Assembly (NCBI GenBank): GCA_004431415.1
Contig: QPMI01000664.1
Span: forward strand, 1 to 41,995
From: Cyanophora paradoxa CCMP329
Lineage: Eukaryota; Plantae; Glaucophyta
Direction: 5' to 3'
Length of the DNA: 41,995 nucleotides
Shown: positions 1-33,984 of the stretch, one piece after another
Position numbering within the stretch: the first letter of the stretch is position 1
How the letters are laid out: every line of letters begins with the position of its first letter
The notes under the pieces: model-generated
What the model was told of the DNA's origin: nothing
What the model saw: only the letters and a program-made list of their open reading frames with translations
The model's database searches: none
Program-made: the position numbers and the translations under genes

Positions 1-117
1 GGCGCGCGGTCGACGGCACCTGCCGTTGCTCGTGGCGCTCGGCGGCTCGCTCCTCATGGTCTGGTACCTGCGCGGCTTCGCGATTTAGATAGATTTTCGA
101 AGCGCTAGCTAGAAGAG

Positions 118-447
118 ATGAGCTGGCTCGACGCGCTGCTCACCAAGACCTTTGGGCCCAAGGGCGCGCCGCGGCTGCAGTTCGGTGAGCTCAACGCCGC
201 GATCGGCGCCACAGTCGAGATGAAGAACCGCGAGAACGTGCTGCTGCGCGGCGACGGAGGCGCGTGGGCGGACATTGCGGCGGGCGCGCTGGGCTCCGCA
301 CTCACCGCACCGGGCAAGGCGGGCCGCGCGCTCACGGACGTGGCCGAGCGCTTCTGGCACTGGCTCAAGGTTGCCGTGGTCATCGCCGCAGCGGTTGTGG
401 CGGGTCTCCTGGTGCTCGAGGCTCGCGCGCTATTTTCTAAACGCTAG
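118..447 (+). CDS. Small viral membrane protein (C-terminal TM helix)
   Basis: 109-aa ORF with hydrophobic segment VAVVIAAAVVAGLLVL; ATTTTC motif upstream of the ATG. Confidence 0.65.
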   Translation: MSWLDALLTKTFGPKGAPRLQFGELNAAIGATVEMKNRENVLLRGDGGAWADIAAGALGSALTAPGKAGRALTDVAERFWHWLKVAVVIAAAVVAGLLVLEARALFSKR

Positions 448-463
448 GTAAAGCGAGCGAACC

Positions 464-868
464 ATGCCCCGCGGCGGCTCTTCCCCCCGTGTCTCCTTCG
501 CTGAGAACGAAGTCGCCGCTACCCCCCTGGAGCCCGGCGTCAAGCTGGAGCGCGCGAACGCAGTCTCCATCAAGAAGGCCAAGCGCGCGCTGGTTCTAGA
601 AGTCCCCAAGACCGCCTCGCAGTTCCTTCCCACGTCCGAGTACGACGGCACGGAAGATACGGAGAAGGTTGCATTCAACAAGCGCAAGACGTACAAGGCT
701 ATACGCGAGGGCCAGCTGCTGCCCACGGACGCGGTTCCCGGGCTGCCGGGCACCACGGCCGGCGAGCTGCTCGTGCGCAACCTGCGCCTGCAGTACGTCT
801 CCCGCCTCCGCCGCTCCAAGGCCAAGAAGGCGCGCCTGGACTCGGGCGATAGCAGCTCTAGCTCGTAG
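464..868 (+). CDS. Hypothetical basic viral protein
   Basis: 134-aa ORF with viral-like codon usage; TATTTTCT upstream. Confidence 0.6.
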   Translation: MPRGGSSPRVSFAENEVAATPLEPGVKLERANAVSIKKAKRALVLEVPKTASQFLPTSEYDGTEDTEKVAFNKRKTYKAIREGQLLPTDAVPGLPGTTAGELLVRNLRLQYVSRLRRSKAKKARLDSGDSSSSS

Positions 869-899
869 GCTCTGTACTCAATACTACCAGTTCCTGTTC

Positions 900-1169
900 C
901 TATCCCAGAGCACGACTCGGGTAAAGGGCACGGTCATAGCGAACATGAACTCGGCAAACTTGGCGAAGTTCATGAGGGTCCCTAGGCGGCGGGTCCTCCC
1001 AGTAGATAGCTTCGCGCAGGGACTCGTAGATGCGCATGAGGGAGCGCTCGTTCTCCGTCGCGAAGGCGTCGGAGGGCTCGTCGGGATCCGGATCCGAGAG
1101 CTCCGAGTACTCGTCCGAGCTGCCAGCGCTCTCGACGCCTGCGGCCGGGTCGGGCGAGGGGTCAGCCAT
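900..1169 (-). CDS. Hypothetical acidic viral protein
   Basis: 89-aa ORF; ATTTTCT motif upstream of the ATG. Confidence 0.5.
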   Translation of the reverse strand: MADPSPDPAAGVESAGSSDEYSELSDPDPDEPSDAFATENERSLMRIYESLREAIYWEDPPPRDPHELRQVCRVHVRYDRALYPSRALG

Positions 1170-1531
1170 TCTTTGCTGGTAGAAGGGCTAGAAAATCACG
1201 GCGCCGGTACTCCATCGAGTCGCCGCGCCAGTACTTGTTGCCGGAGGCGAGCAGCTTCATCGGCTCGCCCGTCGAATCGTGCTTCCAGGCCGCGCCGTCC
1301 CAGAGGGCCGTGCCGCCGTCCTCTAGCTTGAGGCGGTGGCCCGCCTCGAGCCGATCGCCGTTGAGCATGCGGCCGGCCATGAGCGCCAGGTCCCACTCGG
1401 TGAGGCCGCGCTGCTCTTCGGGGTGAGGCCGCGCTCGACGCGCTCGGGCTGGCGCGCCTCGCGCTCATGCGGCTGAGGCCACTAGGAGAAGATGGGCAGC
1501 GCAAAGGCCATGAGATCTAGCAGGCTCCATT
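1162..1531 (-). CDS. Hypothetical viral protein (frameshifted; ORF track shows 1162..1380)
   Basis: The reading frame extends upstream of 1380 (PEEQRGLTEWDLAL-MAGRM...). ATG near 1531 is preceded by TTTTCT. Confidence 0.4.
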
Positions 1532-1867: not shown

Positions 1868-3247
1868 AGGAGGGGGGAGAAGTGACGCGGACGGAATACG
1901 TCATAGTCGAATACGTCATAGTCCAAAACCTGGACTCGGGACTCGCCCGGCCTGCCGGTAAAAAAATAGACTCGGATTGGCGCCATCATCTCTACCCCGC
2001 TGGTTCAGCTGAGTAGGGGGAGAAGTGACGCGTCCGAATACGTCATAGTCGAATACGTCATAGTCCAAAACCTGGACTTGGGACTGGGCCAGACTCTCGC
2101 CAAGTTTCAAATAATAATACTGTACCCTATTATAATAATAATAATACTTAGTATAATAATAATACTATTGCATTCATTGCTTTTGAATGTAGTTAATGTC
2201 ATAGCAACTTGAACATGATGTCATGATGATTTCAAGTTAAATACCGGGTACGGTGTTTTTGTTCAAGTCTCTTTTTTACGGCAGGGCCGGCCGAGTCCCG
2301 AGTCCAGGTTTTGGACTATGACGTATTCGACTATGACGTATTTGTGACGCGTCCGCAACCTCCGCAACCTTTCAGTTAATTAATTAAGCACTGGGCTAGC
2401 GCTAGGCTAGCTAGATATCGATACAGCTAGCTAGCTCAGCTCTACCCTGCCCAAGTTGATGGTATCTAGCAGCGCTTGCTCTCTAAGTCTGCACCGCCTC
2501 CTCCTAGCGCTAGCGCTAGCTCGATACCGCCTCCAGACTTGATCTCCCTTGGCTTCAGCCACCGAAGGGGCTCAGGCACCTTTCCTAGTGAAGCCAGTAT
2601 CGTTGCTCTTGTCCAGCTTGAGGTAGCGGTAGGGCGCCGGCGCCGGCCAGTCGGGCCTGTGGCTGCTTGCTTCCTTGGCTATGTCCTTGGGCCTACGCGG
2701 AAGCAGGTCGGCCTTGGCCTTCGCCCTCTGCAGAGGGCCCAGCGCCTTGAACTTCGGTGCCTTCGTCGCCGGTAGAGCCTTGGGCTGAGGCTTCAGTGCC
2801 TTCTGCGCCTTCGACTTCGGCTGCGGCTGAGGCTTTGGCTGCTTCAATTTCTGCATACTTCTTGCTCATAAATGAGAAAAGCGCCACGAAGTCGGCTTTT
2901 ATCTCCTCCTTGGTCCAGGATGTCACATGATCCGGGTCACCTGAGAACGGCGCATCGAACGCCACGTGGAGCGATTTGCAGGCCTGAGCTATCATTGGCT
3001 CCGGCCAGGCCAGCTCGATCAGCTGAAGGTAGATGTTGAGGGCCTTGTCGAGCTTGGCGCCCTGGGACTAGCTGGGAGATGGCGGGCTCCATGGTGGGTA
3101 GACTTGCATCAGAAAATGGCGCCAAGTTTGAGTTTATTTTTTTACTGGGCGGGGACCTGGGCCCGAGTCCCGAGTCCAAGTTCCAGCCCATGACGGAATC
3201 GTCCATGACGGAATCTTTTGCGTCCGCGTCACTTCTCCCCCCCTCCT
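1868..3247. repeat. Nested inverted-repeat/iteron locus with AT-rich core (candidate origin/enhancer)
   Basis: 15-mer GAATACGTCATAGTC doubled at 1894-1923 and 2036-2065 and inverted at 2314-2343. A diverged inverted copy of the 1868-1986 block lies at about 3115-3247. AT-rich (AAT)n core at 2107-2240. Confidence 0.85.
2466..3092 (-). CDS. Hypothetical protein with Lys/Pro/Ala-rich basic C-terminal half (frameshifted across ORFs 2937..3206, 2693..2995, 2572..2856)
   Basis: ATG at 3092 preceded by ATTTTCTGATGCAA (identical to the motif upstream of 25413). Consecutive overlapping frames join into one plausible protein. Confidence 0.45.
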
Positions 3248-4333: not shown

Positions 4334-5115
4334 ATGGCCACCGTCCGCAGCGCCACCGAGATCGACCCCGCCAAGCTCGCCTTCGAAATCGACGCCAACG
4401 GCCGCATCAAGGCCAAGTACGACGGCCTGCAGGGCCTCATGATGTACGCGCCGCCCATGGTCACGATCAACCCGTGCATCAACACCGAGCAAGGCAAGGC
4501 CTGGAGCGACGAGAAGAAGGCCTTCGTCATGGAAGAAAACGGCGGATTCTACACGCTGGACCTCACCGATCTCAGCGCCGTCGACGGCCAGACGAACCCG
4601 GCCGCGGACGAGTTCCTCAAGCTGCTGGAGGCCCTGGACGCGAAATTCTGCGAGTTCGTGCAGCAGAACCAGGCCAAGCTCAAGGTCTCGCCCGGGCGCG
4701 CCCTCTCCAAGGATCAGATCTCGGTGCTGCAGACGCCCAGCGTCCGCATCAAGGTCGACAAGGAGTCGGGCCAGGCCTTCTACAAGTACCTCAACATGCG
4801 CATCCGCACGCAGACGATGGCCGGCAAGCGCAAGACCGTGCCCGTCGTCGACATGTCCAACTACCTCATCACCGAGCGCGCCACCATCGGCACCGGCGAC
4901 CTGGTGGCGGCCCTCGTTAAAATCGACACCGCCTACGCCATCCCGAGGGCAAGTTCGGCCTCAAGTGGTCCTTCCTCGCCGTGCAGCAGTGCAAGGTCGG
5001 CGCCTTTCGCTTCGCCGGCCGCACGCCCGAGCTGGCCTTCAAGCCCTACGACAACGAGGCCGATTTCGAGCCCTACCTAAACCCCGAGTCTATGTACACC
5101 GCCCCCATGCAGTAG
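4334..5115 (+). CDS. NCLDV-type single-stranded DNA-binding protein (OB-fold); one frameshift near 4945
   Basis: FLKLLEALDAKF helix and G-D-L-V-A-A-L-V-K-I strand. The shifted frame gives GKFGLKWSFLAVQ and an acidic/aromatic tail, matching the GxFGxxW signature of NCLDV/T7-like SSBs. Confidence 0.7.
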
Positions 5116-5169: not shown

Positions 5170-5973
5170 TCAAAGGCCGTTGAACTTGCCGCCCACCGCC
5201 CTGGGCTCCGCCGCCGTCGAGGCCGCCGCCTCCGTCACCTCCTTCATCATCTCCGGGTTCGCGTTGGCCGCGTGCACCGCCAGCACCGTCTGCACAAGGG
5301 CCATCCCCAGGCGCGCCTCGGGCCCCAGGGTCACGTAGCGCGAGTACTTAATCACCAGCTCCTCTAAAATCGGCTGCACCTGGTCCATGGAAGAGAGCGT
5401 CGCCTGCCCGAGCCCGTCTAACTTCAGGCCGATCGGATCGTACGCTTTGTTAAGGTGCTCCAGCGAGTGCATGCCCGCGATCAGAAAGAGGCGCGCCGCC
5501 TCCAGCGAACCCCGCGTGCTCAGCTCGCGCTGAATTTCCTCGTACTCTTCCTTCAGCTCGTCCAGCGGCGTGGCGAGGCTCAGCTTCTTCGTGGACGTCA
5601 GCTCGCCCCCGAACGAGCGCCTGTACTGCGCGATCTGCCGCAGAACCTGCTTCTTCTCGTCCACGTCCACCTGCGCCTCGTCTCGCGGCCTCTCCTGCAG
5701 GTCGATCCCCAGCGCCTTTTTCACGCTCTGCTCCTTCTTTTTCGTCATTTCGATGTGCTCCTGCACGCTGAAGCTCGCGCCCTTGCTCGGCGCCGTCGGC
5801 GGCACCGTGGGCCCGTCGCCCGGCAGCGCCGTCTTGTCTGCCTTCGGCGCCTTCTCGCCCTTTTCCTTGCCTTCCTTCGCGGGGCGGCCCTTCTTCCGAG
5901 GCTGTGGGATCCCCACCGGGTTCGGCCCGTCCACGGCCAGCGCGTCGAAGCCGAGCATGGAAGAGGGGTCCAT
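5170..5973 (-). CDS. Conserved NCLDV-type hypothetical protein (DUF5767-like)
   Basis: DPIGLKLDGL...LEELVIKY...GPEARLGMALVQTVLAVHAAN resembles the LDG...EL..KY...PE..L..H..N pattern of a family conserved in phycodna/mimiviruses (recognised from memory). Confidence 0.6.
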   Translation of the reverse strand: MDPSSMLGFDALAVDGPNPVGIPQPRKKGRPAKEGKEKGEKAPKADKTALPGDGPTVPPTAPSKGASFSVQEHIEMTKKKEQSVKKALGIDLQERPRDEAQVDVDEKKQVLRQIAQYRRSFGGELTSTKKLSLATPLDELKEEYEEIQRELSTRGSLEAARLFLIAGMHSLEHLNKAYDPIGLKLDGLGQATLSSMDQVQPILEELVIKYSRYVTLGPEARLGMALVQTVLAVHAANANPEMMKEVTEAAASTAAEPRAVGGKFNGL

Positions 5974-5998: not shown

Positions 5999-6325
5999 TT
6001 ACTCGGAGGTCAGCTCGGTGAACATATCCAGGTAGAGCCAGAGCTTCTCCCGCGTGCTCGACGGGCACCCGAAGAAGAGCGGCCGCACCCACCGGTACTC
6101 GGCCGGCAGCTTCTCGAAAATTCGCTCGTCGCGCGATTTAATTAGCGCCGCCTCCGCGTTGATGTGCCGCCTGAAGAGGACGATGACCGCCGTGGCCCCT
6201 ATGCCGCGCAGCGAGTCGATCTGCGCCCGTACCCCCGGCTCCTTCGCCTCCGCCCCCAGCACTCCGAGGAAGCGGCCCCAGCGCGCCTCGATCTGCTCGC
6301 CCAGCGTTGCCTCCGTCGCCGCCAT
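5999..6325 (-). CDS. Conserved NCLDV-type small helical protein
   Basis: IKSRDERIF...REKLWLYL resembles the I..kDE.FF...K..IW.YL pattern of NCLDV hypotheticals; ATTTCT upstream. Confidence 0.55.
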   Translation of the reverse strand: MAATEATLGEQIEARWGRFLGVLGAEAKEPGVRAQIDSLRGIGATAVIVLFRRHINAEAALIKSRDERIFEKLPAEYRWVRPLFFGCPSSTREKLWLYLDMFTELTSE

Positions 6326-6347
6326 GTGCTCGCGTGTGCATTAGAAA

Positions 6348-7520
6348 TTAAGCAGCGGCGAAGGGGTTGGGGGCAGCCACCGGTGCGACCGGTGCGACCG
6401 CTGCGGCCGCCTGCGCGGCGTATCGACCCTGCTGTGCTGCGGCCGCAGTGTACGCATTCGCCGCGCGCAACGCAACGGCCTGTTGGACACGGAGCTGGTT
6501 GTTACGACCCTGGCCCACCAGGTTCTGGAATGTTGTACGGAATCGTTCCTGCAGTGAGTCCTCCCCCGCGTTCACCGGGCCCGCCCGCCGCAGGTCGTTA
6601 ATCTGTCTAACCATGCTCCCGTCCGCCCCCCACGCGTTCGCCTCCTGCATAATCGGGTTTGTAATCGCCGGCAGGAGGTTCTGATCGTGGTACGGCACGG
6701 CGGTCGAGATGGCCGGGCCGCGCGTCCCCTGCATGTCCATGAGCACCGCTTCGAACGGATTGCCCTTGCTGAAGTCGATGTCCTTCCTCCCGTACGGCGT
6801 GTTGGCCGCATTGGTGAGCCGCGCCGTCTGGGCGTTGAACATGGGCGACAGGTCGGGGGTGTAACCGGCGCGGAGGTTCTGCCCGTAACGGCCTGCGGGG
6901 CCAAGCAGGTTCTCCCGCTCAATTTCTTCCATCGTCTTGATCCAGCCGCGCTCGCGCGCCCACTTCATGACGAGGTCGTCGTAGTTCATCGGGAAGAAAA
7001 CCTTCTGGTACTTGTCGAACCGCGTAATTTCGATATCCTGCTCGATCATGTTCGTAATTCGCTCGAGCAGCTCGGGGTAATATTCCTCGAGCATTTTGGC
7101 GACGCCCGGCTGCTTCAGGTCGAAGGCCGTCATCGCCCACTGGTCGAAATCGCGAATCATGATTTCCTTCCGCAGCGAGAAGGCATTCTCAACGTCCTCC
7201 TCGTTGATCGTGCGCCCGGGGTGGGCGTTCTGCAGCTGCTGTCGGATGCCCATGCGCATCAGCTTCTCCATCTGCGGGGTGTACTTCATGGCCGGCAGGG
7301 CCTTCGTGTTCGTGCCGCTCACGCCCAGGCCACGCGCCACGTCCTCCGGCGTGTAGACGTCGGCCTTTGAGGGATCCAGGACGGGCACCTCGGGCATGAT
7401 CGTGCCCGGCGCGTACTTCTCGATAATTCCCGTCACCTCGCCCTTCAGGTCGTTCTTCAGCGACTGGCGCTGCTTCTTAGAGCCCTCCCCAATGTCCATC
7501 ATAGAGTGGCCCTTCGTCAT
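6348..7520 (-). CDS. Hypothetical protein downstream of MCP (possible virion/core protein)
   Basis: Intact 390-aa ORF, co-oriented with MCP, ATTTTC upstream. Confidence 0.7.
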   Translation of the reverse strand: MTKGHSMMDIGEGSKKQRQSLKNDLKGEVTGIIEKYAPGTIMPEVPVLDPSKADVYTPEDVARGLGVSGTNTKALPAMKYTPQMEKLMRMGIRQQLQNAHPGRTINEEDVENAFSLRKEIMIRDFDQWAMTAFDLKQPGVAKMLEEYYPELLERITNMIEQDIEITRFDKYQKVFFPMNYDDLVMKWARERGWIKTMEEIERENLLGPAGRYGQNLRAGYTPDLSPMFNAQTARLTNAANTPYGRKDIDFSKGNPFEAVLMDMQGTRGPAISTAVPYHDQNLLPAITNPIMQEANAWGADGSMVRQINDLRRAGPVNAGEDSLQERFRTTFQNLVGQGRNNQLRVQQAVALRAANAYTAAAAQQGRYAAQAAAAVAPVAPVAAPNPFAAA

Positions 7521-7592
7521 CGTGCCTCGGTTAGGATCCCAATGGGAAAATTTATTGGTTCAAATCGGCGTACAGGGGAGGGGGCTAGGCGA

Positions 7593-9050
7593 CTACTGGA
7601 AGCGGCGGTAGGCGCCGCCGCCCACGTAGCTGATCTCGTTGTAGTAGCGGCAGTAGATGGTGGCGTGCCCCTCGAAGGCAGCGGGAGGGTTGCCCGCGCC
7701 GGTCTTGGCCGTCGTGAGGGTGAGCTCGACGGTCTTGAAGGCGCCAAAGTCCAGGCCGCCGAACATCTTGGTGTCGTCGCCGACCTCGGTGCCGAAGGGC
7801 AGCGAGTAGATGTACTCGACGCCGAACTGGCCGGTCGCAGTCGAGGCGGGAACAATGTCGCTGTTGGTCCTGTCCTGCGTCTCCACGGTCGTGACGGGCG
7901 TGTCGTTGCCCGACCAGGGGTTGGCAAGGAGCGCCGTCTGGAGGGCCTTGAGCGCCGCGGCCTCCCTTGCGTCGTAGGCGACATCCCCGGCGGCGGGCGC
8001 CGTAATCAGGTTTTGCGCCTCCGCGTCGGTGGATGCCGCGAAGCCCTGCAGCAGCTCGAGGAACTTGCGCGTCGGCACGTTGCGGTGCTCGCGCGAACAA
8101 ATAACCGTGCGGATGAAATTCGCGTCCAGGATGGAGTCGTCCACCACCTTAATATTATCGCACTTGAGGCCGATCTTCGTGAGGGGCCGGAACTTCCAGA
8201 ACTCCTTGGCCGCCGCCGTCGGCGTGGCATCGCGCACGACGACCAGCAGCTCGTAGCAAACTCCGGTGAAGGGCAACCGAATCGCGGTGCCCGACTTGAA
8301 GCCGACCTCGTAGGACTGCATGAACTTGCCGGGGTAGGTAACGCTGTTGGGCTGGAGGCTCAGCTCGTAGGCGGAAACGTGCGTGTAGCGGACCATGAGC
8401 TTGACGCTGTCGAGGTTGCCGGCGCTGGTGCCGGCCGTGTGGTTTGCCGTCGAGGCGTAGGTGACGTTGAGCTCGTTGAGGCGCGCAAATGTGATCTGAA
8501 TCTTCAGGTCGTTGCCGGTGCCGCGGAGCTTGTAGAGGGGCACGGCGTTCTTGCGACCGAAGCCGTTGAGAATGCGCAGTGGGATGGTGAGGCTCATGGC
8601 CCCGTGGTTGGAGCGGCGCTGCAGGAGCTGGGGCGCCCAGCACTCGTTGATGAGGTTGGCGTTGTGGGGGAGGGAGCGATCCTGCTCGAGCTCGTCGTAG
8701 ATCGCATCGTAGGCACCCTCGTACTCGTGCACGAGCTGCGTCCCCACGAACACCTTGACCTTCTTGAGCAAAATAAATCCGGCCTTGGGAAGGTAAAATT
8801 TGGTGTCGTCCGCAAGGTCGGGCAGGGTCGCCCGGAGCCAGACGTCGGAGATGAACGGGCCGGAGTGGGGCACGACGAAATCGACGACGGTGTCGAAATT
8901 GGGCGAGGCCTGCACGGGGCTAACCTCCAGCACCTCGTCCACGAACGGCGTCGCCGTGTCGAAGGAGTCGGGCACGTGCACCGACGAGTTCGAGCTCAGG
9001 AGCGACTGCGCGAGGGCGGTCGTGGGGGTGGAGATGAGCGCGGAAGCCAT
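7593..9050 (-). CDS. MCP: Major capsid protein, NCLDV-type double jelly-roll
   Basis: 485 aa with motifs F.VPHSG..ISDVWL..TLP, LKKVKVFVG.Q, LTIPL, VPL..L, LKIQITF, YSLPFG, GGLDFG, YCRYYN, typical of NCLDV MCPs. Confidence 0.9.
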   Translation of the reverse strand: MASALISTPTTALAQSLLSSNSSVHVPDSFDTATPFVDEVLEVSPVQASPNFDTVVDFVVPHSGPFISDVWLRATLPDLADDTKFYLPKAGFILLKKVKVFVGTQLVHEYEGAYDAIYDELEQDRSLPHNANLINECWAPQLLQRRSNHGAMSLTIPLRILNGFGRKNAVPLYKLRGTGNDLKIQITFARLNELNVTYASTANHTAGTSAGNLDSVKLMVRYTHVSAYELSLQPNSVTYPGKFMQSYEVGFKSGTAIRLPFTGVCYELLVVVRDATPTAAAKEFWKFRPLTKIGLKCDNIKVVDDSILDANFIRTVICSREHRNVPTRKFLELLQGFAASTDAEAQNLITAPAAGDVAYDAREAAALKALQTALLANPWSGNDTPVTTVETQDRTNSDIVPASTATGQFGVEYIYSLPFGTEVGDDTKMFGGLDFGAFKTVELTLTTAKTGAGNPPAAFEGHATIYCRYYNEISYVGGGAYRRFQ

Positions 9051-9080
9051 GGTTTAGGGGTGCGTTGAGAAAATTTTTCA
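9051..9080 (-). promoter_or_regulatory. Candidate late promoter of MCP (AATTTTCT...TAAACCATG)
   Basis: An instance of the ATTT(T)C(T) motif found about 15-30 nt upstream of more than 20 viral ATGs. Confidence 0.55.
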
Positions 9081-9086
9081 GTGGGT

Positions 9087-11520: not shown

Positions 11521-11916
11521 TTACATCTGAACTGCAATCGCGGGCTCGCTCGCCGCCTTCTTCGGCGCGCGCTGGCGCTTCGGGACTTGGCTCTCGGCGG
11601 GCGCCGAGTCGTCCGCCGGGGCCGCCGTCTTCTTGACGCGGGGCGCCGCGGGGGGCTTCGGGACCGTAGGGGCTGCCGGTGCCTGGCTCGAGCCGGCGGC
11701 CGGGCCAGTTGCGTGGGCCACCTGCGGGCGCTGCGGCGGGGGGCTGGTCTCCCGGGCCCCCTCCTCGAGGACCCGGCGCATGAAGCGCGAGACCCGGCCG
11801 CTGCATTGCGTGCAGGAGCCGACGGCCACCTGGCGGTTGTTCTTGCTGGTACGCACCTCGACGTTGGCGAGCCTGGTGTTGGAACGGCACTTGAAGCAGT
11901 AGTGGGCGTGCTCCAT
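11521..11916 (-). CDS. DUF5679-like zinc-ribbon protein with basic/Pro-rich tail
   Basis: YCFKCR...TSKNNR...GSCTQCSGRVSRF matches the YCxKC...KNGR...G.C..CG pattern. Confidence 0.7.
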   Translation of the reverse strand: MEHAHYCFKCRSNTRLANVEVRTSKNNRQVAVGSCTQCSGRVSRFMRRVLEEGARETSPPPQRPQVAHATGPAAGSSQAPAAPTVPKPPAAPRVKKTAAPADDSAPAESQVPKRQRAPKKAASEPAIAVQM

Positions 11917-12117: not shown

Positions 12118-12594
12118 TCACAACGGGTTGAGCGCGGCGTAGAGCGCGATTAAGTAGGCGTCGCAGAGGTCGTCTAGCTTCCCGTTTCGATCCGCGATGC
12201 CGGCGAGCTCGGCGGGTACAAGGTCACGGCACTTGTCCACGGCGCCGCGCTTGCGCTCCTTGTAGCTCGGGTTCGAGATCTTGAAGAAGTGCTTGATGGC
12301 GCGCGGGCTCACGATGCGCGCACGCCCGTACAGGAGGGCGTGGAGCGTGCACTCGATGCAGCGATTGATTCCCGTCCTCTGGCCCTCGATCGCGATCTGG
12401 TCGGGAAGGCCGAAGGCGCTATGGCCGCGAGTAACCTCAACCAGGCGCGCAACAAGGCGGCCACAGCAGCGCGCAGACGGGAAGAGGGCGATCTTTTGCC
12501 AGTCGAGAATCTGGGATTCCTTTGTCTGCGGATCGAATTCGATGAGGCACCAGGCGAAATTAATGACCCCCACATCCACGCCGAGAATCTTCAT
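12118..12594 (-). CDS. RuvC-like Holliday junction resolvase (poxvirus A22-like)
   Basis: True start at 12594 (MKILGVDVGVINFAWC); IAIEGQ, KERKRGAV and KLDDLCDAYL catalytic motifs. Confidence 0.88.
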   Translation of the reverse strand: MKILGVDVGVINFAWCLIEFDPQTKESQILDWQKIALFPSARCCGRLVARLVEVTRGHSAFGLPDQIAIEGQRTGINRCIECTLHALLYGRARIVSPRAIKHFFKISNPSYKERKRGAVDKCRDLVPAELAGIADRNGKLDDLCDAYLIALYAALNPL

Positions 12595-14073: not shown

Positions 14074-14108
14074 GCGCGCCCCTTAAAAATTTCCGAGGCC
14101 CCAGGAAA

Positions 14109-19690: not shown

Positions 19691-20164
19691 ATGCGCCTGA
19701 TCATATTCCCGCGAAAGGGCTCGGGCGTCAAGACGCGCACCTTTACGGGCGTGCCTGGCTACCCCTCGCCCCTTGCTTACAGAGTCGATCTTGTAACCGC
19801 CTCTGGTCCAATTAAATACGGGCTGCTGCACAGCCTCAGTCACATCCGTCTCGGCGAGAGCGCATGGCAGGACTTGGCCTTAATCGTAGAATTCGAGTAC
19901 AGGGGGGTAGACACGCTAACGGGCGATCACTTTTACAGGGTACGGGTAGCAAGGGAGGGGTACTCGCTGCCGAACGGCGCGGGCGGGGAATACTGGGAGC
20001 CGAAAATACGCGATGCCTCCGAGGCCTACCGCTGGCTGCGCGACGAGCAGATCACTATCAGGCCCGATTACCCTACGCCGACGTTTTCTGGCAGGTGCCG
20101 TGGGCCGCTGGACAACGGGCGAGGTGAGCGGCAAGCTGAAGTGGACTGGGACGCGGAGCATTAG
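19691..20164 (+). CDS. Hypothetical viral protein
   Basis: 157-aa ORF; ATTTTC...TAAATG start. Confidence 0.6.
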   Translation: MRLIIFPRKGSGVKTRTFTGVPGYPSPLAYRVDLVTASGPIKYGLLHSLSHIRLGESAWQDLALIVEFEYRGVDTLTGDHFYRVRVAREGYSLPNGAGGEYWEPKIRDASEAYRWLRDEQITIRPDYPTPTFSGRCRGPLDNGRGERQAEVDWDAEH

Positions 20165-20189
20165 TTAATTTTTCTCTCTCGCGGTAAAA

Positions 20190-23100: not shown

Positions 23101-25388
23101 CTGCCCTCCGAGGGCGTGTTTCAGACGCTCGACAGGCGCGTGATGGGCGACTCGGACGTTATTTTGCGCAACGCCCTGATGCCCTACGGCGACTGGAACC
23201 GCGCCACCGCCGACGCCCTTGCGGATTTCGACCTCGAGCGATTCACCACCAAAGAGCAGCGCGACGCCTACCTGGGGCGCCCGAGGGCAAGGCGGCCCGG
23301 GGTGGCCAAGGAGGCCTCAGCGCCGAGACGCTCTTCTCGCGGCGGGTACGGCGAACAACGATGGCATGTCTTTCGGGGCAGCCGATTTATTTCAAGGGGC
23401 GGGTATCGATTTGGTGGGCGCCGGGCTGGGGGGTACGGGCTCGCGGGCCATGCGGCGGGCGGGCGCGGCGGCGGCGGGCCTTGGACTGGCGACGGCGGGG
23501 GGTCTGCTCTCGGCCTACCAGGCGCTCTCGCAGGGCAAGATAGGGGAGGCGGAGTTCTTCGATACGTTCCGCGATCAGATGATCATGACGGTCGGCTCCT
23601 TTGGCCTGCAGACGGGCATGTCGTCCGCCCTGAGCGCCCTCACGAAAATGAGGATCGGCACGGTGGGCGGACTTGGCCTGTCCATCCTCGCGGGCGCCAT
23701 CGCGCAGGTGATCGTGGATATCATCAACGGGCGCAGCGCGGAAGAGATCGTGAAGAACTTCTTCAAGTACCCCGTCGACTGGGCGGCCGACACCATCCAG
23801 TTCATTGCGCAATTATCGCAGCAGATCTACGACTGGGGCGTCGAGACGTGGGGCGACGAGGCGAGCCAGCTGCGCAACCGAATTAATCGGCTGGAGGGCG
23901 AGCTGGGCTCCGGATTTGTGGGGGTGTACGACCCCTCGGAGGCGCGCGAAATGGCCTCTCTCTTGGCCCAGGAGCTGCGGTTAAACGAAATTAAGGAGCC
24001 GAAGGAGCTGCAGGCGTTCATTCGCGCGCTCGACAACAGCATCAACGATTACCGTACCCCCAAGGACCAGAAGACCCTGCTCGAAATCGATCGCGCGACC
24101 GTGCTCTTCCTCTCCCAGCTCACCGTTAAAATGCAGGAGGGCTTCGGGTCGACTTCGCTCGCCCTGAGTCGACTTATGCGCGACCTGAAGCAGATGATAA
24201 AGGAGGAGACCAAGGGGCGGAAGCGCGTCTTAATTGCCGTCTACCAGGAGGGCCTCAACAGGATCAATCACATCGAAGCCCTAAGGCGCGAATTCGGCTC
24301 GGCCATCCGTCACTCGGGCGTCTCGTCGAACGGAGGGGCGCAGGTGGCCCGCCTGGCCGACGCCAACTCGCGCCTCGAGATTCCCGGTACCTTCCGCATG
24401 CAGGATTGGTGGGAGGCCGAGGCCTTCAGGAATTACGGGGCCTTCATAGACAACGGGATCAATTCCCAGAGCCCCAAGGCAAACTGGCTGGTACCCAAGG
24501 CCTACGTCGATAAATTGATGGACAGGCCCGCGGCACCCTACAGCAAAAAGATCGCCAAGGGCATCGAGTACTGGGCGCCCGAGCCTAACCAGCCCGTCTT
24601 TGCGTCGCAGAACTACGAGTGGCACATGGCGCCGGGGGCGAGTCAGGCCGTCAGCACCGTGGGCGTTGCCGTACCGCAGCTGGCGGCCGTGGCGCATACA
24701 GGAGAGTACCAAGATCTAAAAGGGAGGCCGACGATACCGACAATTCCAGCAACTTGGGCGTGGGATAACATCACGGGGAAGCCGAGCACGTACCCCCACG
24801 CAGACCACCAGCACACCCTCTCCCAGATCAGCGACTGGGAGGCCCCGGATTTGTCAAACATCACTGTGGACTGGGAAACGCAAGTTACGGGCAGGCCAGC
24901 CACCTTTCCCCCCTCGACTCACAGTCACAACGTGGACTGGGAGACTCAAGTTACGGGGAAGCCTCTCACCTTCCCCCCCTCTACGCACAGTCACACAGAG
25001 TACTCGCTCACCGGCCACGGGCACAGAAACGTGAACATGGACGCTTACATTCAACACGGCACTTTCTTTCACACGTACTCCGCGAACACGGCTTTCGATC
25101 TCAACACAACATACATTGTCACGTTCAACATGAGTTTCCCGGAAGCGTACGACGCAGGTGGTGGCTTGTTACCTGTATGGCCCCAGCCAGGGGGAACCCA
25201 CCGCCAAACGTAACAGTTACCCATCCATAAAACTTGGAGTGGATGTCGACATGACAGTGAACGTCTACGACGTCACCTACACCGGATTTGTCGTCAGAGT
25301 GAGGTTCAGGCCCACGATGTCAGAAACGATCATCGAATCTAAACGGCTCACGATCTACTGGATGGCAGCGGGCAAGCTGCTTATGTAA
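20190..25388 (+). CDS. Giant (~1,700 aa) fibre/tape-measure-like protein, broken by several frameshifts (ORFs 20215, 20403, 21136, 23219, 25158)
   Basis: Consecutive overlapping ORFs join at single-base shifts. Contains HxH fibre motifs, a (GGGGTGT)n linker, a TM segment, a long coiled coil, Gly/Ala hydrophobic helices, W..(I/V)TG(K/R)P.T(Y/F)P...H.H repeats and a C-terminal H-type-lectin-like domain (VTF...F...VYDVTYTGF...YWMAAG). Confidence 0.6.
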
Positions 25389-25412
25389 TCGATTTTCTGA
25401 TGCAATCCAAAA

Positions 25413-26238
25413 ATGTCAGTTGCTGTTCCTTTGTTCACCTACGCTGCAGCGTGAATCACAAGGGCGATCACACGATTAAGGAGACCACCCTCGGAAACCA
25501 GGCCACCGAGGCCCCCTACAACGCCACGGCCGTCCCTTCTCCGAGGCCGATCTCGTGCGAGTCGGCGAGCTGCGCTGCGATAAGATGCGCACGCGGGAGG
25601 GCGGATCGGCCGTGCCGGGGCGCGTGAAGACGCAGAGGCTCACCGTCACGAACGGCTCCTGGGACGGGAGTGGTCACACCACAAACGCCCTGACCTTTAA
25701 CGGTACTGCCGACGGGGAGGGGAATGCGGCGCTCTACGTGCAGGGGGGAGGGGCGGACGTGGTGGGCGGGCTGCGGGTCAACGGGGCCGCAACAATTACG
25801 GGCTACCTGAAGCACCCAAAGCCGGCTTTCTGCGTGGGCCTGAAAACAACGTTTGTAACACCAGCGGAAAAGGGGGTCATCAAACCATGGGGGTGGGCGT
25901 GGATCAACACGGGAGGCTTCAATACGACGGAGGGCACATTCACGGCACCCGTGAGCGGGGTGTACAAATTTACGCTGTCGGCAACCAGTGCTGTCGCAGG
26001 GGCCCTTTCCGTCACGCTGCGGAGAAACGGATCGGAAGGCGTGGATGGTGCGAAACCCTGGGCGTACACAAGCGAATCCGGCGATAACCGCAACCTTGCA
26101 TTTACGTTCATGTGCACTCTGGCACAAGATCAGTACATCGATCTTTACTCCTGGAGTGGTCAGTACCTGGGCGAGGGATTGAGTGTCACACCCAGTGGCT
26201 TCACCATATTCACTGGCGAGCTTGTTTACATGACGTGA
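25413..26238 (+). CDS. C1q/TNF-like domain fibre-head protein (5' frameshifts)
   Basis: PAFCVG...GFNTTEGTFTAPVSGVYKFT...LRRNG...LAQDQYIDL...FTIFTGELV is a typical C1q pattern. Confidence 0.8.
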
Positions 26239-26256
26239 GTCTTGGTGTAGAACGAC

Positions 26257-28277
26257 TCAGAGGCCGTACTTGGCCTTAAGGTGCGTCATCAGGCTGCTGA
26301 TGTCGCCGCGGAGCCGGAGCGCCCGACAATGATGATCTCAGCGACAAAGGCGTTGAGGTACCCGCCCAGACACCAATGTTCCTCCCAATGAAGCCGGATG
26401 TGCGGGCCTGTGCAAGGGGCAACCGGTAGAGGGTCCCGTACCTCCACGCGCCGGGATCGCGGTAGCGCCCCCGCCCTGCAGCGAAGACCAGAACGTACGC
26501 GACGTGTCCGTGAACTGGCATATGAAGACGCTGTAGGAGGATGTCGATGTCGTCTGGGGCGTGGTCGTGTACGCACTGTACGTCGTGGAATTCGGGCTGA
26601 CGCCTGTGACGATCCGACCCGGGTCGTTCAGGTCGTGCATCGCGTAAATGATGCCGGATACGTCCGATACCACGCCGATGTTCCAGTAGTTCGTGTGATC
26701 TACGCTGCTTATGGCCTTCACTACCAACGCGACCAGGAACCCATTCGGGTAAGCAACGTTGTTGAACCGCGACAGGTGCGCCGAAAAGTCTAGCCACTGG
26801 CTGGAAGCCGACGTGAAGCGCAGCGCCGGCTTGCCGTTGCTGGCGTTCGCGACGAAGGTAGGGCGGTTTGCCGGCGTCGACTGCGTTGCGGACTCTGCGG
26901 TGTTCGCGAGGTTCTGCCAGCTGCTGACCGCTGCGCCGTCTGCAAGCGAGAGGGACGAGGCGTCGAAGTGCTGCACCAGATCTGTACCGAACTGAGCGGC
27001 AACGGAGAAGAGGGTGACGCTGCTGCTTCCCGAGGAGGGGCCCTCCTCGCCACCTGGTTGACGCCTTGACGGTGTAAGTGTACGTGGCCCCGTAGACGGC
27101 CGTCGCGTCCGAGTAGGGGCTGGCGCTGGCGTTCGCGAGGAAGGCGCCGCCCCTGTAGATGTTGTAGGAGACGGTGACGCCCGTCGCCGGCGCGGACCAC
27201 GCGAGCACCACGGGCAGCAGCTGGGGCGCCCCTTCCGTCGGGGTCGCGGTGAGCCCCGCGGGCGCCGCCGGGTCCGTGGTGACGTAGACGGCCACGCTTG
27301 TGAGCCCCTCCCCGCCCAAGTTCGTCGCGGAGATCTGGTACTCGTACCCCGTACCCCAGACCGTGGTCGCGTCGCTGTAGGAGTTGGTTGCGGAGTCTGT
27401 AAGGTAGGCCCCATCCCTGTAGATCTTGTACCCCGTCGCCCCCGTGGGCGCCGTCCACGCTAAGCTGACGGGCTGCTGCTGATCGTCGGTGCAGTCGCCG
27501 TCACGTTCGTGGGTGCCGCCGGCTTCGTCCAAACAACGAGGGGATCGGACTTTTCGTATTCGACCCCGCCCACGATGCCAGCCACCTGGTAGGAGTACTC
27601 CGTGCCCCATGCGAGGGCAGTGCTATCGTCAATGTACGAGGTAGATAGTCCGCTGCTCGCAAATCCGATGGGGGTACCATCCCTGTAAATGCGAATCGAG
27701 TCCGCGCCCTCCATGGCCACCCAGTTGATTGTGACAACAAAGGTGGGCTTCGGGAAGCCTGCAGACGCGGGCCGCCCCCTGCGATAAAATCGCCGTAGCT
27801 CTGGGCCGTGGCGGTCGTGAGCGTGGTGTACGCCTCGATCTGCGGCTGAAGCCGCCTATGCCTTGAAGAGAATGTAATTGCTCATAGTGCCCTCATGCGT
27901 GTAGAGAAGCGACTGTGCGTAGGTGGTGGGCGGGGCTTTGCGTGAGAGCCCGTGCTGCTGCTGCCCTGCTCGCGCACCGCCGCCACGCGTAGAGCCGCAG
28001 AGCCCCGAAACTAAAGGGCGAGTCCGTGTAGGTGACGGTTGGCGCATTCACCGTGGCCACGAGATCCAGGGCCGTTGATGCTGGTCGCCCTGTACACCTT
28101 GTACTTGACGGCGTTGGCGACGGCGACCCAGTTCAGTTGAAATCCGTAGGTGCCGCCCCCGTTATTGAGCACGGAGCCCGATCGGACCTGGGGCCTGCTC
28201 ACAGTGAGCGAGATCGGTTCCACGCCGTACTGCGGCGCCTGCACCACCTGCTTCTTCACAAATACGAAGCGGGGCAT
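26257..28277 (-). CDS. Fibronectin type III repeat protein with C-terminal LamG/ConA-like domain (multiple frameshifts; may be two genes)
   Basis: Four FN3-like units (L.W.A...A..Y.IYR.G...Y.D...G..Y.Y.V.A), then HFDASSL...VSSWQN...RPTF...NGKPALRF...AEIIIV...HLKAKYGL stop at 26257. Confidence 0.7.
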
Positions 28278-30132: not shown

Positions 30133-30167
30133 TTTGCCCTAGGTTCAGAAAATGTTCGACCGGGACC

Positions 30168-30641
30168 TTGGACCTTGGTGCTCGGACTTGGTGCTTGGTG
30201 CTTGGTGCTTGGTGCTTTGGAAGCGTTTCTCTCAGGACCCGGCCCAGACTTTCTCCAGGATCGGAAATTTGTCAGACAAGTCAGGTGAGTTTTTCTACGG
30301 ACTTTTTTACTCGTAGTCTTTTTAGTCGTACCACCCTCATACTCTTTTTACTCGTAGTCTTTTTTACTCTTACGACTTCTCGTACCCTCTGTCTCTTGAC
30401 ATCTCGCTTGAATCGCTCTCGAAACTCTGTCGACATTTCAGACTCTACCTCTCTCGAAATCTCACCTGGAATGTCACCGAAACGTCGTATGCAAAATGCA
30501 GTACCCCTTTCTAAGTCTGCCCGATGGTTAATGACTTGGCGCGGCAAACTCTCAGATCCAGAGAAAGTCTGGGCCCAGACTCTGAGAGTAACGCTCCAAA
30601 GCACCAAGCACCAAGCCCAAGGTCCGAGCACCAAGGTCAAG
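30168..30641. repeat. Inverted repeat (~100-bp arms) with CTTGGTG heptamer arrays around a pyrimidine-rich spacer
   Basis: 30171-30186 matches the reverse complement of 30623-30638, and 30241-30255 matches 30561-30575; tandem CTTGGTG/CACCAAG; TTTTTACTCGTAGTCTTTTT is repeated in the spacer. Confidence 0.85.
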
Positions 30642-30737
30642 TAAAAATAGTCGCCAATTTTACAAGTATGTACAATGGAATGACGCAATACTATTTACAG
30701 CATCTCAAAGTCAGAGTCATCGCCATCGGAAACCAAC

Positions 30738-31560
30738 TCAATGAGGCCTCGGGCGCCGACTTAAGGGAATGCGGGGAAGGGCCTGCGCTGCCTGCACTAA
30801 GTCCTGCCGCTCCTGCTCGCGCTGCGCCGCCAAGGCCGCTGCCGCCTCTGCCTCGCGCTGCCGCTGAGCCTCAATGCGCGCCTTGAGCTCGGCTGCCTCC
30901 TTCTGCTTGCGCTCGGCAATCTTGGCCAGCGTCATCTCGCGACGAAGAAGGCGCTCGTGACGCAGCTTGCGCCGCAGCTCGGCCATTTCGCGCTTGGCGA
31001 TGATGCGCTTCTCAATGGTCTTGACGTGCTGAGTCAGGCGCTCGGTGTAGTGTGACGTCACACGAGAACGGCAATGCCAGCGCCGAGCTTCAAGTCCTTG
31101 GCGTTTTCCTTGGCGGGTCCTTGACGCGCTCGGAGTTGTCGGTGAATGACGTAGTCTCCATGAACTTCTTCTTGACGATTGACTTGTCTTGATAATGCGG
31201 CGCTTGCGAGTCGGGTTTTCGTTGTCGCCTTCAGAGTCAGAAGACGACTCAGAGTCGTATGGGATCGGCACGTCAAAGTCGATGAAGTCGTTGATGTCAG
31301 ACTCGACGTCAGAGGCCTCGGACTTGCGTCTTCAGTGGGCTGAGGGGCAGATGACGACGATGACGGAGGGGGTAATTCGTGAAGACTTGAGGGGATAGGC
31401 CAGGCGAGCGTCTCGGCGGCAGACTCGCGAAAAGCTTGGGGTCGCCCCAGCCAGTGGGAGTCTTGACCCAGCCGGGACGGGGGGCACGTCGACGGGGGGC
31501 TCGGCTTGGGTTGCTTGGACTTGGCAGAAGGGCGGGTACAAAGTTGAGGTTGATGGTGCG
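30738..31560 (-). CDS. Hypothetical protein with acidic patch and coiled coil (frameshifted; start uncertain)
   Basis: ORFs 31058..31633, 31332..31541 and 30738..31271 overlap; E/K/R/A-rich coiled-coil C-terminus. Confidence 0.4.
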
Positions 31561-32879
31561 ACATTACCGTCGCTGTAAGCTGGTAGCAGTACCCCAGATT
31601 GCGGGCACGCTTCTCCATTTCACGGTAGGCCAATCGCGGGACTTAGTCCACATCTCGCGGCCTTGGCAAGGTCCTCAACAAGCTCAGAGGGAAGCGACAT
31701 CTGCGCAAAGGAAAAGTTCAGCAAAGGCAAACGTGAGGTGACTGAGAGAGCGGACTGTGAAATCGAGAGGCAGGTTTCCTTGGCTGAGAGAAGGCGGCGA
31801 ACCCGTTTCAAGAGTGAGGCAAAGTGGGCCGCCAGATGCCAGGCGTACGCGATGGGAGAAGGCGTGCGGATCACGAAGGTCATGAAGAACGTCGCGCCAA
31901 GCGAAGCGCACTGAGGCGCGCGGGCGCGAGGCCGACGCGCCGCCTGACGATACGCTGGCAACGCTCGCAGGAAGCGCGCGGATCCGGAGCCCCGGCAGCG
32001 GGAACGCTGCAGGGAGTGCGGTGCCCTCGAGTCCCGCCACCAAGGCGGGGAAACCCTAGCCCTCTCACACCTAGCTGCCGCCAGACGACTACGCTGGGTC
32101 CGGCTTCAGCGGCCATGCAAGTATACGACCATACGAACAGGTATGCTTGGGGCGTGGCACACAGAGGGCGCGCCCGCGCTAGAGGGAGACACTGGGGATT
32201 GCGGTCTGGGGGCGGGGCCGGAGGACGCAACACCAACAAATGGAGGCGGCGGAGGCACGGCAGCGGCGGCCAGTAGCCCAATCTACTGGGGCTGGCGAGG
32301 AGCCTGGCACACGGCGCGGCGAGGCCCTTGGGCAGCGCTGGCGGCGGACATACCATGATTGGGAGTCTTTGTAGAGATAGGACCTCGTAGCCGGGAGTTT
32401 AGGTTGGTTTAGAAATCGATACAGCTAGCTTCCACATCATTAGTATTAGTTAGAAACCTCCTTAGCTAGATATCTAGACACGAAACCTTCAAACCTTTCG
32501 TTCATTTGTACTTTCTAAAGCACAGCATACGACGGTCCTCGATAGTATCTAGTCGGAGAGATTTATTGGCGATGTGAAACTCATTGTAGTTGTTTGTGTG
32601 CTAATGCAAGAGATTTTAATTCAAGAGTGAGGCAAAATGGCGGCGGACCGCGGTTTTGTTGCCGATTTTTTTCGCGTCTAGTTCGCAACGGAAAACGTGC
32701 AACTGGCCTGAAAAAAGCCAAATTTGGCCTTTTCTTACGTTTCTCCCCCCTTCCTTGCTGCAAACTGGACCTAAAAAAATGTTGGCCGAAGGAAATCTCA
32801 CGAAAAAGTCCCTTCTCCCCCTGTTTGCTGCAAACTGGACCGCAAAAAAGTTGGACCGAAGCCCCCCTACCCCGCTGAG

Positions 32880-33438
32880 TCAACCTGGCGGAAATCACTC
32901 GAGTGCGTCCTCCGAAGGTCGAGTCTCGGGGTTGGGTGTACCCCCGTCCAGAAACTCATCTGAGGTCCACAGATTTTTCCCCAGCCGTGTCAGGTATGCC
33001 AAAACGGCCGCCTTATCTGGAAGATAATTCTCAGTCAGCAGCCGTTGAAAGGCGTTACGAAATCGCATGACAACCTCATCTGGATCATATCCTTTATGAA
33101 CGCCATGAACTGCGAATTTTTTGCAAGCTCCTCCGCTGCAACGGTGTCCGTATTGGGAATGCTATTGGATACGGAATATCCTCGTGAACCCCAGCAAGGT
33201 TGCTGCCTGTGTCGACTTCACTAGAAGAGGTGCGCGTAGCCAGTCATGATTGCTTCACGCCGAGCCCGTTGTGGCTGAAATCGTACCGTTGGCGGGCCAG
33301 GCTTCCTGTGAGCTCTTGCTCCATGCGCCCAATAAATGAGCGATCGTATGCTGCGCGCTTTCGATCGTATGAGGCTTCGACATTATCGCGGTGTTGTGTC
33401 GACTATCCTCTTCCGACGTCCACTGTCCAACTGGTCAT
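32880..33438 (-). pseudogene. Decayed viral ORF
   Basis: ATTTC...AAATG start at 33438; interrupted coding-like fragments (GYDPDEVVMRFRNAFQRLLTENYLPDKAAVLAYLTRLGKNLW). Confidence 0.3.
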
Positions 33439-33478
33439 TTGAGCTTTCCCTCCCTCCGAAATTTCCCCGCTTTTGAGT

Positions 33479-33535
33479 CCAGACTCTGATTTAACTCTTC
33501 CCAATCCAAGCACCAAGCACCAAGCACCAAGGTCC
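33479..33535. repeat. Third copy of the CACCAAG heptamer block
   Basis: CCAGACTCTGA...CCAAGCACCAAGCACCAAGCACCAAGGTCC, same orientation as 30575-30638. Confidence 0.8.
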
Positions 33536-33984
33536 TAGTCCATTTTTCTCCCATTTTGACTCGAGATTCTGTCCAAGTCCAAATCCGGCCCCGGGATTCG
33601 AACCCTCGTTTTGGGTCGATTTCACGCGTGAAAACAGCACTTTTCGGCCTTTCCGATTTTTCCTTTCTCGCGATCGCATTAATGCCCCCGATCTCGAAAT
33701 CGCGATCGAAAAGGGTCGCGATCGGGAGAAAGTCGCGATCACCAGGGTCGCGATCGGCTCGTGATCGCCGCGATCGCCAGCTCGGAGGGGGTACCCCCAC
33801 AGCTGTTGCGGCGGTTATAAGAACCTCCGCAATCCAAGCGTCACTTCCGAGTCTCGAGCTCTCGAGTTGACTTTTCGCGTTTGGCCATTGATGGCCCTCA
33901 TATATATATACGCATAATCTCACGACAATGTCCAGAATTCACTACAGATAGCTAGCTATAAGCGGGCCGCGAAGGCAAAGTAAA

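Follow-up and report, generated by a model that had tools for sequence, protein, structure and literature searches.

Introduction

The class Mriyaviricetes, defined in PMC11253617, comprises viruses with genomes of 35–45 kb that have been proposed as the closest living relatives of the ancestor of the giant viruses. Its members lack PolB and are modelled as replicating by a rolling circle (PMC11253617); a 2026 preprint, in the part available, names Yaravirus as the sole isolate. The rolling-circle replication of the class is a prediction. A helicase is present in 55 of 60 mriyaviruses, and VLTF2 in all gamadviruses ('Gamadviridae'), a group that includes the Pleurochrysis sp. endemic viruses and nucleocytoplasmic large DNA virus (NCLDV)-like dwarf viruses (NDDVs) such as Phaglo-G (PMC11253617). 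Here we describe a 41,995-nucleotide stretch of DNA from the glaucophyte Cyanophora paradoxa CCMP329 (contig QPMI01000664.1, positions 1 to 41,995; the window), in which positions 1 to about 34,000 are a viral element. This element probably represents the greater part of a single copy of a gamadvirus-related mriyavirus, likely to be a provirus in the nuclear genome.

Endogenous Yaravirus-like NCLDVs have been described from Phaeocystis, namely PaeNCLDV and PgeNCLDV (PMC12480563) and the NDDV Phaglo-G (10.1101/2022.07.28.501842). Embedded Mriyaviricetes regions have also been reported in a Glaucocystophyceae assembly (10.1101/2025.04.19.649669, Fig. 5f), and these are probably the family described here; Cyanophora has no row in the available part of the table in PMC11253617. 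Methylated Nucleocytoviricota insertions are known from C. paradoxa, with mriyaviruses not named in the portion of the text available, and the C. paradoxa genes of viral origin are enriched in the methylated, mostly silent fraction (PMC12344493). The available main text of PMC10120064 makes no mention of Cyanophora, glaucophytes, Yaravirus, or dwarf, NCLDV-like or endemic elements. The original prediction for this DNA, made from the sequence alone, inferred a probably new lineage that would tie the group to a specific GC-rich protist or algal host; the host is a glaucophyte alga, and the novelty was overrated, because mriyavirus regions had already been reported in a glaucophyte assembly (10.1101/2025.04.19.649669, as far as available). 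A literature search, whose coverage ended short of subscription papers, found nothing on the copy number, the tandem HUH pair or the capsid types of the Cyanophora family. The copy number, the deep branch and the capsid mosaic reported below were not found in print.

Results

The element, with at least 34 kb in view, encodes an NCLDV-type double jelly-roll major capsid protein (MCP), an A32 ATPase, RuvC, VLTF3, a single-stranded DNA-binding (SSB)-family protein and two tandem HUH endonucleases. The original prediction had listed the same genes, and all of them were found with Pfam, profiles and motifs. It had also seen no polymerase or integrase, which agrees with the finding of no PolB, integrase or helicase family among 43 open reading frames (ORFs) searched with Pfam and 123 of the 187 further stop-to-stop frames of the window. 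No DNA polymerase or RNA polymerase subunit was found in the 34 kb, and no pPolB, rve or tyrosine recombinase (YR) integrase or cysteine protease, the marks of Polintons, polinton-like viruses (PLVs) and virophages, was found within the window; the left part of the element lies outside it.

The element continues beyond the left edge of the window, because two small viral ORFs there (118–868, plus strand; starts at 118 and 464; 109 and 134 amino acids; late-type upstream motif) are represented by homologues next to core genes of five other contigs, lying 8–11 gene numbers from the MCP on four of these and 10 from Mriya_48 on the fifth. At the other end, depth is high up to 34,040, and the repeated sequence common to the copies reaches at least that position. 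The extent of 1 to 33,900 proposed earlier is therefore about right at its right boundary and too short at its left.

Ten of 34 profiles built from gamadvirus-type contigs match the window: those for the ATPase, VLTF3, Mriya_48, SSB (PEV_26), RuvC, MCP, Mriya_1, Mriya_51, a small ORF that follows the ATPase gene and, weakly, PEV_20. Profiles read as PEV_14, 15, 22, 27, 34 and 35 gave no convincing match to the window. The gamadvirus gene order is kept in two blocks (Mriya_51–PEV_20–Mriya_48 and ATPase–ORF–VLTF3), and a short HUH gene is followed by a longer one, HUH_long, as in the gamadvirus-type locus L083. The match of both HUH genes to gamadvirus HUH proteins extends over motif I and the C-terminal helix. 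The long HUH protein beside the short one is a mark of the 'Gamadviridae'; the NCLDV-type MCP, the A32 ATPase, VLTF3 and RuvC, HUH motifs I–III and Mriya_1, Mriya_48 and Mriya_51 are marks of the Mriyaviricetes. The Mriya and PEV labels were transferred by gene order from the available part of the table in PMC11253617.

The ATPase is 48.7% identical over 269 amino acids to that of Pleurochrysis endemic virus 2 (PEV2; AUD57306). In the best 120 of 359 search matches, the family itself is followed by proteins at 47–55% identity that include the PEV2 cluster, and among the 80 relatives kept of 139 in IMG/VR, 78 show 39–52% identity and two NCLDV-like ones 33–37%. No relative was found when the family ATPase alignment was compared with a metagenome contig collection. 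The mriyavirus identity originally proposed is thus supported, and is narrowed to gamadvirus-related by the tandem HUH and HUH_long genes, the PEV_26-type SSB, Mriya_1, Mriya_48 and Mriya_51 and the ATPase identity to PEV2.

A structure of the MCP predicted from a 70-sequence alignment, which held NCLDV and gamadvirus MCPs and so favours that fold, has a predicted local distance difference test (pLDDT) score of 73.7. The model matches the PBCV-1 capsid with Z of 37.1 and a root-mean-square deviation of 2.3 (350 aligned), compared with Z of 20.4 for Sputnik and 20.0 for mavirus, and in BFVD virophage and adintovirus rows appear only at ranks 42 and 43. Based on this model, the MCP is an NCLDV-type double jelly-roll and not of the virophage or polinton type; the earlier separation from virophages by their different MCP is in keeping with a predicted fold nearest the PBCV-1 capsid and far above the virophages. 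A profile search of 1.84 billion representatives gave 55 MCP matches, the best seven being pieces of the family or resembling them and the remainder, at E 1e-10 or weaker, mostly NCLDV-type MCPs. No MCP relative was found in a viral contig collection, and at the level of sequence the MCP appears to be without a close known relative.

This divergence of the MCP, with NCLDV-type proteins as its nearest outside matches at such weak E-values, would be expected if the element were a PLV, a virophage or a decayed fragment of a large NCLDV; moreover, some Zephyr PLVs have VLTF3 and some Zora viruses have HUH and Mriya_48 (10.64898/2026.06.19.733378, as far as available). Such an origin is nevertheless very improbable, given the ten common gamadvirus families with their order kept, the tandem HUH pair, an ATPase about 50% identical to gamadviruses as against 33–37% to two NCLDV-type loci, and Z of 20 for virophage MCPs as against 37 for PBCV-1.

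Trees were constructed for the ATPase (46 rows), MCP (36) and VLTF3 (23) with gamadvirus and NCLDV rows alone, and thus with neither Yaraviridae nor PLVs. Each tree separates the family, by a long branch, from the sampled gamadvirus clade (support 86/98 for ATPase, 96/93 for MCP and 98/98 for VLTF3), and the family falls outside the NCLDV rows too. In none is it nested inside the compact gamadvirus clade. Because of this long branch the element is filed as a relative and not a member of the gamadviruses: it is a new, divergent member of the class Mriyaviricetes, gamadvirus-related and outside Gamadviridae proper. The new lineage anticipated in the original prediction is partly supported by the position of the family in the three trees, and tempered by their long-branch warnings and by the choice of rows. 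Phylogenies of these three proteins against Yaraviridae, Gamadviridae, PLVs and NCLDVs had been put forward there as a means of placing the element; those constructed here cover gamadviruses and NCLDVs.

The original prediction missed the high copy number and the capsid mosaic; the element in the window is one of dozens of copies. All 13 non-self MCP matches and the closest ATPase clusters are EukProt models, and the members listed carry Cyanophora paradoxa accessions. By a rough hand tally of contigs, which are not equivalent to loci, family genes occur on at least 65 named contigs (MCP on at least 29; core or left-end genes on at least 38; the gene near the right end on at least 32; six in common). 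Of the 15 other contigs on which an MCP and an ATPase gene could be paired, 14 have the two separated by four to six gene numbers. Three EukProt contigs (tig00000342, tig00020572 and tig00020816) each carry two MCP models, g24262 and g24267 on the first and adjacent numbers on the other two, which are split genes or neighbouring copies. An ENA contig (P0017/P0268, 3350 bp) and a Logan contig (P0020, 8181 bp), both outside the EukProt gene set, carry ATPases 90% and 83% identical to that of the window and a RuvC 88.5% identical; a different strain or species of Cyanophora, or a free virus, may be their source.

Single viral contigs in runs X3/X5 have depths of 7,500–8,200 (VLTF3, short HUH), 2,200–2,400 (HUH_long) and about 350 (window-specific alleles), and contigs with host genes have depths of about 120–340. 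These values, which are contig depths and not copy numbers, agree loosely with tens of copies. The ratio of depth in the 2012 run X1 to that in the 2024 run X3, a rough measure, is 0.25–0.37 in the virus and 0.18–0.27 in the moderate-GC flank; in host DNA of very high GC content it is as low as about 0.05, which is read as library bias. A virus-to-host depth ratio that is stable between 2012 and 2024 suits chromosomal copies better than a fluctuating infection, and fixed chromosomal copies fit the data for this reason.

The high viral depth could also come from a virus persisting in the culture as a free or episomal infection, the join to host DNA then being an assembly chimera. No spanning contig is among those listed, and a Pleurochrysis strain linked to gamadviruses is suspected of carrying a persistent virus (PMC5294986, in the part available). 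This explanation is quite improbable, since the virus-to-flank depth ratio is similar in one 2012 and two 2024 runs, the window stretch is present in many DNA runs of one organism together with many diverged copies, and methylated, clustered viral genes have been published for C. paradoxa (PMC12344493). The claim that the element is endogenous accordingly gains indirect support from the stable depth ratios and the multiplicity.

The copies differ chiefly in their capsid genes. Where both genes are present (15 other contigs), identity to the ATPase of the window reaches 96% or more on 11 contigs, and identity to its MCP is 49–67% on 14; Mriya_48 is 97–99.6% identical in nine other copies and RuvC 97–99% in five. 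The 33 MCP models fall into three types in the proportion 22:6:3, with two that do not align. The types are 54–67% identical to one another, and the window carries the rarest. When window positions 6000–10745 are compared with other copies, divergence extends from the 3' part of Mriya_1 through the entire MCP and tapers off within Mriya_51; this suggests that a block of about 4–5 kb was exchanged by recombination.

The capsid types also bear on how the copies arose. The host flank at 36870–41000, including an intron-bearing gene, is itself repeated about 2–6 fold by depth, and therefore some copies may be host duplications. In a rival explanation, a few accidental insertions of an element that is not integration-competent were later multiplied by segmental or subtelomeric duplication of the host. 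The depth of the window-specific viral allele (about 350) matches that of the flank (320–340) in X3/X5, three loci carry the capsid type of the window, the element abuts satellites, and one preprint, as far as available, takes Nucleocytoviricota insertions without mobility genes as mainly accidental. By contrast, near-identical backbones with three capsid types call for the arrival of several genomes or for recombination afterwards, and the family genes are spread over the many contigs counted above, which makes duplication as the main source of the copies fairly unlikely.

Besides the repeated flank, the make-up of the 70-sequence alignment, the long-branch warnings together with the position outside the sampled gamadviruses, and the limits on contig counts and depths, several points weigh against reading the window as a gamadvirus-related provirus. 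An MCP model from 13 family sequences alone was unusable (pLDDT 34.6). In the VLTF3 tree, four non-gamadvirus rows, from the family and two NCLDVs, stand together on one side of the starred branch. An SF3/SF2 helicase, a PD-(D/E)xK nuclease, Mriya_50 and VLTF2 are further marks of the Mriyaviricetes. The window gave no match to a gamadvirus helicase frame, VLTF2, PD-(D/E)xK, Mriya_50, PEV_27 or the minor capsid protein (mCP); the left part of the element, outside the window, could hold these, or an integrase. No contig bridging the boundary between virus and host is among the short-read contigs listed, in a comparison that left out 34041–36869. Nicking, integration and methylation of this locus are put forward as proposals.

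The short HUH endonuclease gene (15504–16345, plus strand) has motifs I–III, with the HUH motif at 15986 and YxxK at 16292, and is split by one frameshift. HUH_long (16363–18200, plus strand) joins a long N-terminal region to a C-terminal HUH domain (HUH motif at 17773, YxxK at 18104), with a frameshift before motif III and an uncertain 3' end; the Atlas look-alikes of its C-terminal part are Rep/HUH clusters (score 0.88–0.91).

Two long palindromes were identified, each with 0 of 100 shuffles folding as well. The first (1870–2353) is imperfect, with inverted 15-bp iterons round an AT-rich core (DNA fold z = –16) and an inverted copy of its arm at 3116–3243; it is a candidate replication origin. 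The second (30160–30640) has arms of CTTGGTG repeats (z = –10) and an inverted arm copy at 33490–33545, and both are candidates for origins or ends of the element. The two were also considered as mutual terminal inverted repeats, which was rejected, only short words being common to them. Two CTAG-rich regions (2350–2560 and 32380–32560) have a 21-base word in common (95% identity) and adjoin similar purine/pyrimidine tracts.

A WWTTTC motif, which was picked after inspection of the sequence, is found in the 45 bases that precede 22 of 30 genes, compared with 5% of random windows. Clusters of TCACCTGA lie upstream of ORFs 3365 and 3943, of the SSB gene and of the VLTF3 unit.

The remaining core genes begin with the PEV_26-like SSB-family gene (4334–5115, plus strand; gamadvirus profile E = 1e-20; a frameshift near its 3' end), whose Atlas look-alikes are Nucleocytoviricota clusters (score 0.92–0.94) and whose putative SSB function rests on the label of Yutin et al. 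On the minus strand follow Mriya_48 (DUF5767; 5170–5973; Pfam E = 3e-13, profile E = 4e-31), described as an envelope protein; a weakly matching PEV_20-like ORF in syntenic position (5999–6325; profile E = 0.016, or 4e-4 in a small set); a Mriya_51-like protein (6348–7520; profile E = 7e-9); the MCP (7593–9050; Pfam Capsid_N E = 1e-8); and a Mriya_1-domain protein (9087–10745; profile E = 8e-11), the three Mriya labels resting on gene order. Also on the minus strand are a DUF5679 zinc-ribbon protein (11521–11916; Pfam E = 9e-10) and a RuvC/A22-like Holliday-junction resolvase with an open frame of 158 amino acids (12118–12594; Pfam Pox_A22 E = 3e-6 and a gamadvirus profile).

The A32-like DNA packaging ATPase gene (12632–13702, plus strand) matches Pox_A32 at E = 2e-4, just under the curated cut-off, and a gamadvirus profile. 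Between it and the VLTF3 late transcription factor gene (14453–15283, minus strand; Pfam Pox_VLTF3 E = 9e-25) lies a small, frameshifted hydrophobic ORF (14109–14449, plus strand; profile E = 9e-7), which is kept in 76 of 80 gamadvirus-type loci and matched no named cluster in the available table rows of PMC11253617. Downstream of the HUH genes, a two-helix small hydrophobic ORF and two beta-rich ORFs (19017–20164, plus strand) are candidate minor capsid genes; they matched neither the Mriya_50 nor the mCP profile of gamadviruses. They are followed by a predicted fibre or spike block (20190–28277) consisting of a coiled-coil protein, phage-tail-like repeats, a C1q domain (25585–26238) and a minus-strand tail- or virion-like repeat protein. 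Depth falls sharply at 25964–27179, within the tail-repeat and C1q block at 23366–28277, which suggests that this is a variable receptor-binding block. No tRNA was found in the window. No RNA run is among those listed as containing the stretch. Contigs of run X17, whose RNA nature is a guess, lie on 14103–16364, 19048–19844 and 32078–32569, with none listed on much of 20085–24739, and provide no evidence for or against expression.

The SSB gene, both HUH genes and several others are split by frameshifts in the window. Short-read contigs differ from it by many single-letter gaps among the matches listed (12 of 184 rows), and because low-depth contigs with 0–1 substitutions, which probably come from this locus, still show one to three gaps, many of these frameshifts are likely to be consensus errors; decay of this copy may be an alternative cause.

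Near the right end is a gene for a charged protein of 340 amino acids (30698–31700, minus strand) with many frameshifts and no Pfam or PHROG match. Its homologues are all EukProt models, and 26 of the contigs that carry them (at least 32 named contigs) have no core gene among the matches listed. On five contigs it is 12–14 gene numbers from an ATPase or VLTF3 model, on the VLTF3 side in four and with the side undefined on tig00020545; on tig00000443 the homologue is 20 gene numbers beyond the MCP, on the opposite side. Copies in tandem, permutation of a circle, a terminally repeated sequence or a small element of its own between the CTTGGTG arms could each account for this varying place. The 3.4-kb segment that the arms bound (30160–33545) may be a module of the viral end or a mobile element in its own right. 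Within the high-depth region, 32900–33475 has low depth (215–296 in X3/X5) and a broken ORF of no known family, and is probably a copy-specific insert or allele; a retrotransposon gag fragment was considered at 32900–33440 and found no Pfam or PHROG support.

The apparent right boundary is followed by a 167-bp tandem array (34064–34856; 4.7 units), which may be viral or host in origin. Each unit contains a TATA-like word and an AGGTGAG/CACCTGA-like word resembling a motif upstream of early viral genes; a bacterial promoter scan of the boundary gave results at chance level. A GC-rich 38/77-bp satellite (35600–36854) lies further into the flank, and at about 38400–40150 on the plus strand is a host gene with short GC-rich GT..AG introns (about 39430–39487, 39552–39607 and 39931–39987), so that the adjacency to satellites and an intron-containing gene noted originally is as described. 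The intron-like stretches are common to many contigs of one organism's DNA. By its motifs the gene may resemble an alpha-1,6-fucosyltransferase; Pfam and PDB gave no confirmation.

Discussion

The features shown above, from genes, motifs and their order to the capsid fold, the number of copies and the capsid types, lead us to propose a model of the replication mode, origin, integration route, recombination and silencing of this family. The virus would be nuclear and would rely on the DNA and RNA polymerases of the host. A HUH endonuclease would nick an origin, for which the palindrome at 1870–2353 is the candidate, and start rolling-circle replication; the SSB protein would coat the displaced strand and RuvC would resolve concatemers. 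VLTF3 would switch on late genes through the AT-rich motif that precedes them, with the A32 ATPase packaging DNA into the double jelly-roll capsid. Recombination between related viruses is likely to have exchanged the capsid block that runs from Mriya_1 to Mriya_51 and so to have produced the three types found on one backbone. CpG methylation probably silences most copies, by analogy, because viral-origin genes of C. paradoxa are enriched in the methylated, mostly silent fraction (PMC12344493).

Copies may have entered chromosomes recently and repeatedly from HUH-nicked replication intermediates, without a dedicated integrase, some being duplicated later together with their flanks. HUH nucleases are able to link the DNA of a virus or a mobile element to chromosomal DNA, as in adeno-associated virus (AAV) Rep, Helitrons and IS91. 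The HUH nuclease is common to those systems and the element, which differs in that no cognate helicase was seen. This route is put forward tentatively, with a little more doubt than belief. The element runs off the window, so that a dedicated rve or tyrosine recombinase integrase could lie in its left part, as in the Zora, VC134 and VC218 viruses; dozens of near-identical dispersed copies would suit an active integrase, and RVE or YR occurs in 57–62% of genomes of the related groups (10.64898/2026.06.19.733378). The same preprint, as far as available, has integration genes absent from mriyaviruses, none is among the conserved genes in the available part of PMC11253617 and none was found in the 34 kb of the window, and we regard an integrase as unlikely.

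The most far-reaching version of the HUH-mediated model, in which C. paradoxa carries about 60 recently expanded, HUH-integrating proviruses of a new family-level lineage sister to the Gamadviridae, with three swapped capsid types, is distinctly doubtful as a whole. If true, it would make this the first temperate, HUH-integrating member of the Nucleocytoviricota, in a cultured model alga. The host link has already been briefly reported, which limits the surprise; the copy expansion, the deep branch and the capsid mosaic lift the element above a routine find. Because dozens of copies are present in an alga that is in culture and for which DNA, RNA and methylation data are public, they can be studied without a wild virus. 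It becomes testable whether HUH nicks the predicted origin, how integrase-less Nucleocytoviricota enter chromosomes and why turnover is faster in the capsid genes than elsewhere in the genome.

Among described systems, Zoravirus, VC134 and VC218 (10.64898/2026.06.19.733378) resemble the element in their NCLDV-like capsid module, Mriya_48 and, in some genomes, HUH; they are 20–30 kb and usually have RVE or YR. PaeNCLDV, PgeNCLDV and Phaglo-G are likewise small NCLDV relatives in algal assemblies, and Phaglo-G has a high GC content and short tandem repeats at its flanks. Unlike the element in C. paradoxa, the Phaeocystis elements are 47–54 kb, occur in haptophytes and have no large copy expansion mentioned in the available texts. 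The regions reported in 10.1101/2025.04.19.649669 belong to the same virus class and host class, and the available text neither maps their genes nor counts copies, analyses HUH or describes capsid types.

The closest resemblance is to the 'Gamadviridae' (PMC11253617), with which the element has in common the MCP, ATPase, VLTF3, RuvC, Mriya_1, Mriya_48 and Mriya_51, the PEV_26 SSB, PEV_20 (weakly), HUH with HUH_long, the two gene blocks and, within the window, the lack of PolB and RNA polymerase. It differs in having a HUH_long of about 600 amino acids, compared with 1749 in L083, in its host, a freshwater glaucophyte where theirs are haptophytes, in the long branch that sets it outside their sampled clade, and in the presence of three capsid types among its dozens of copies.

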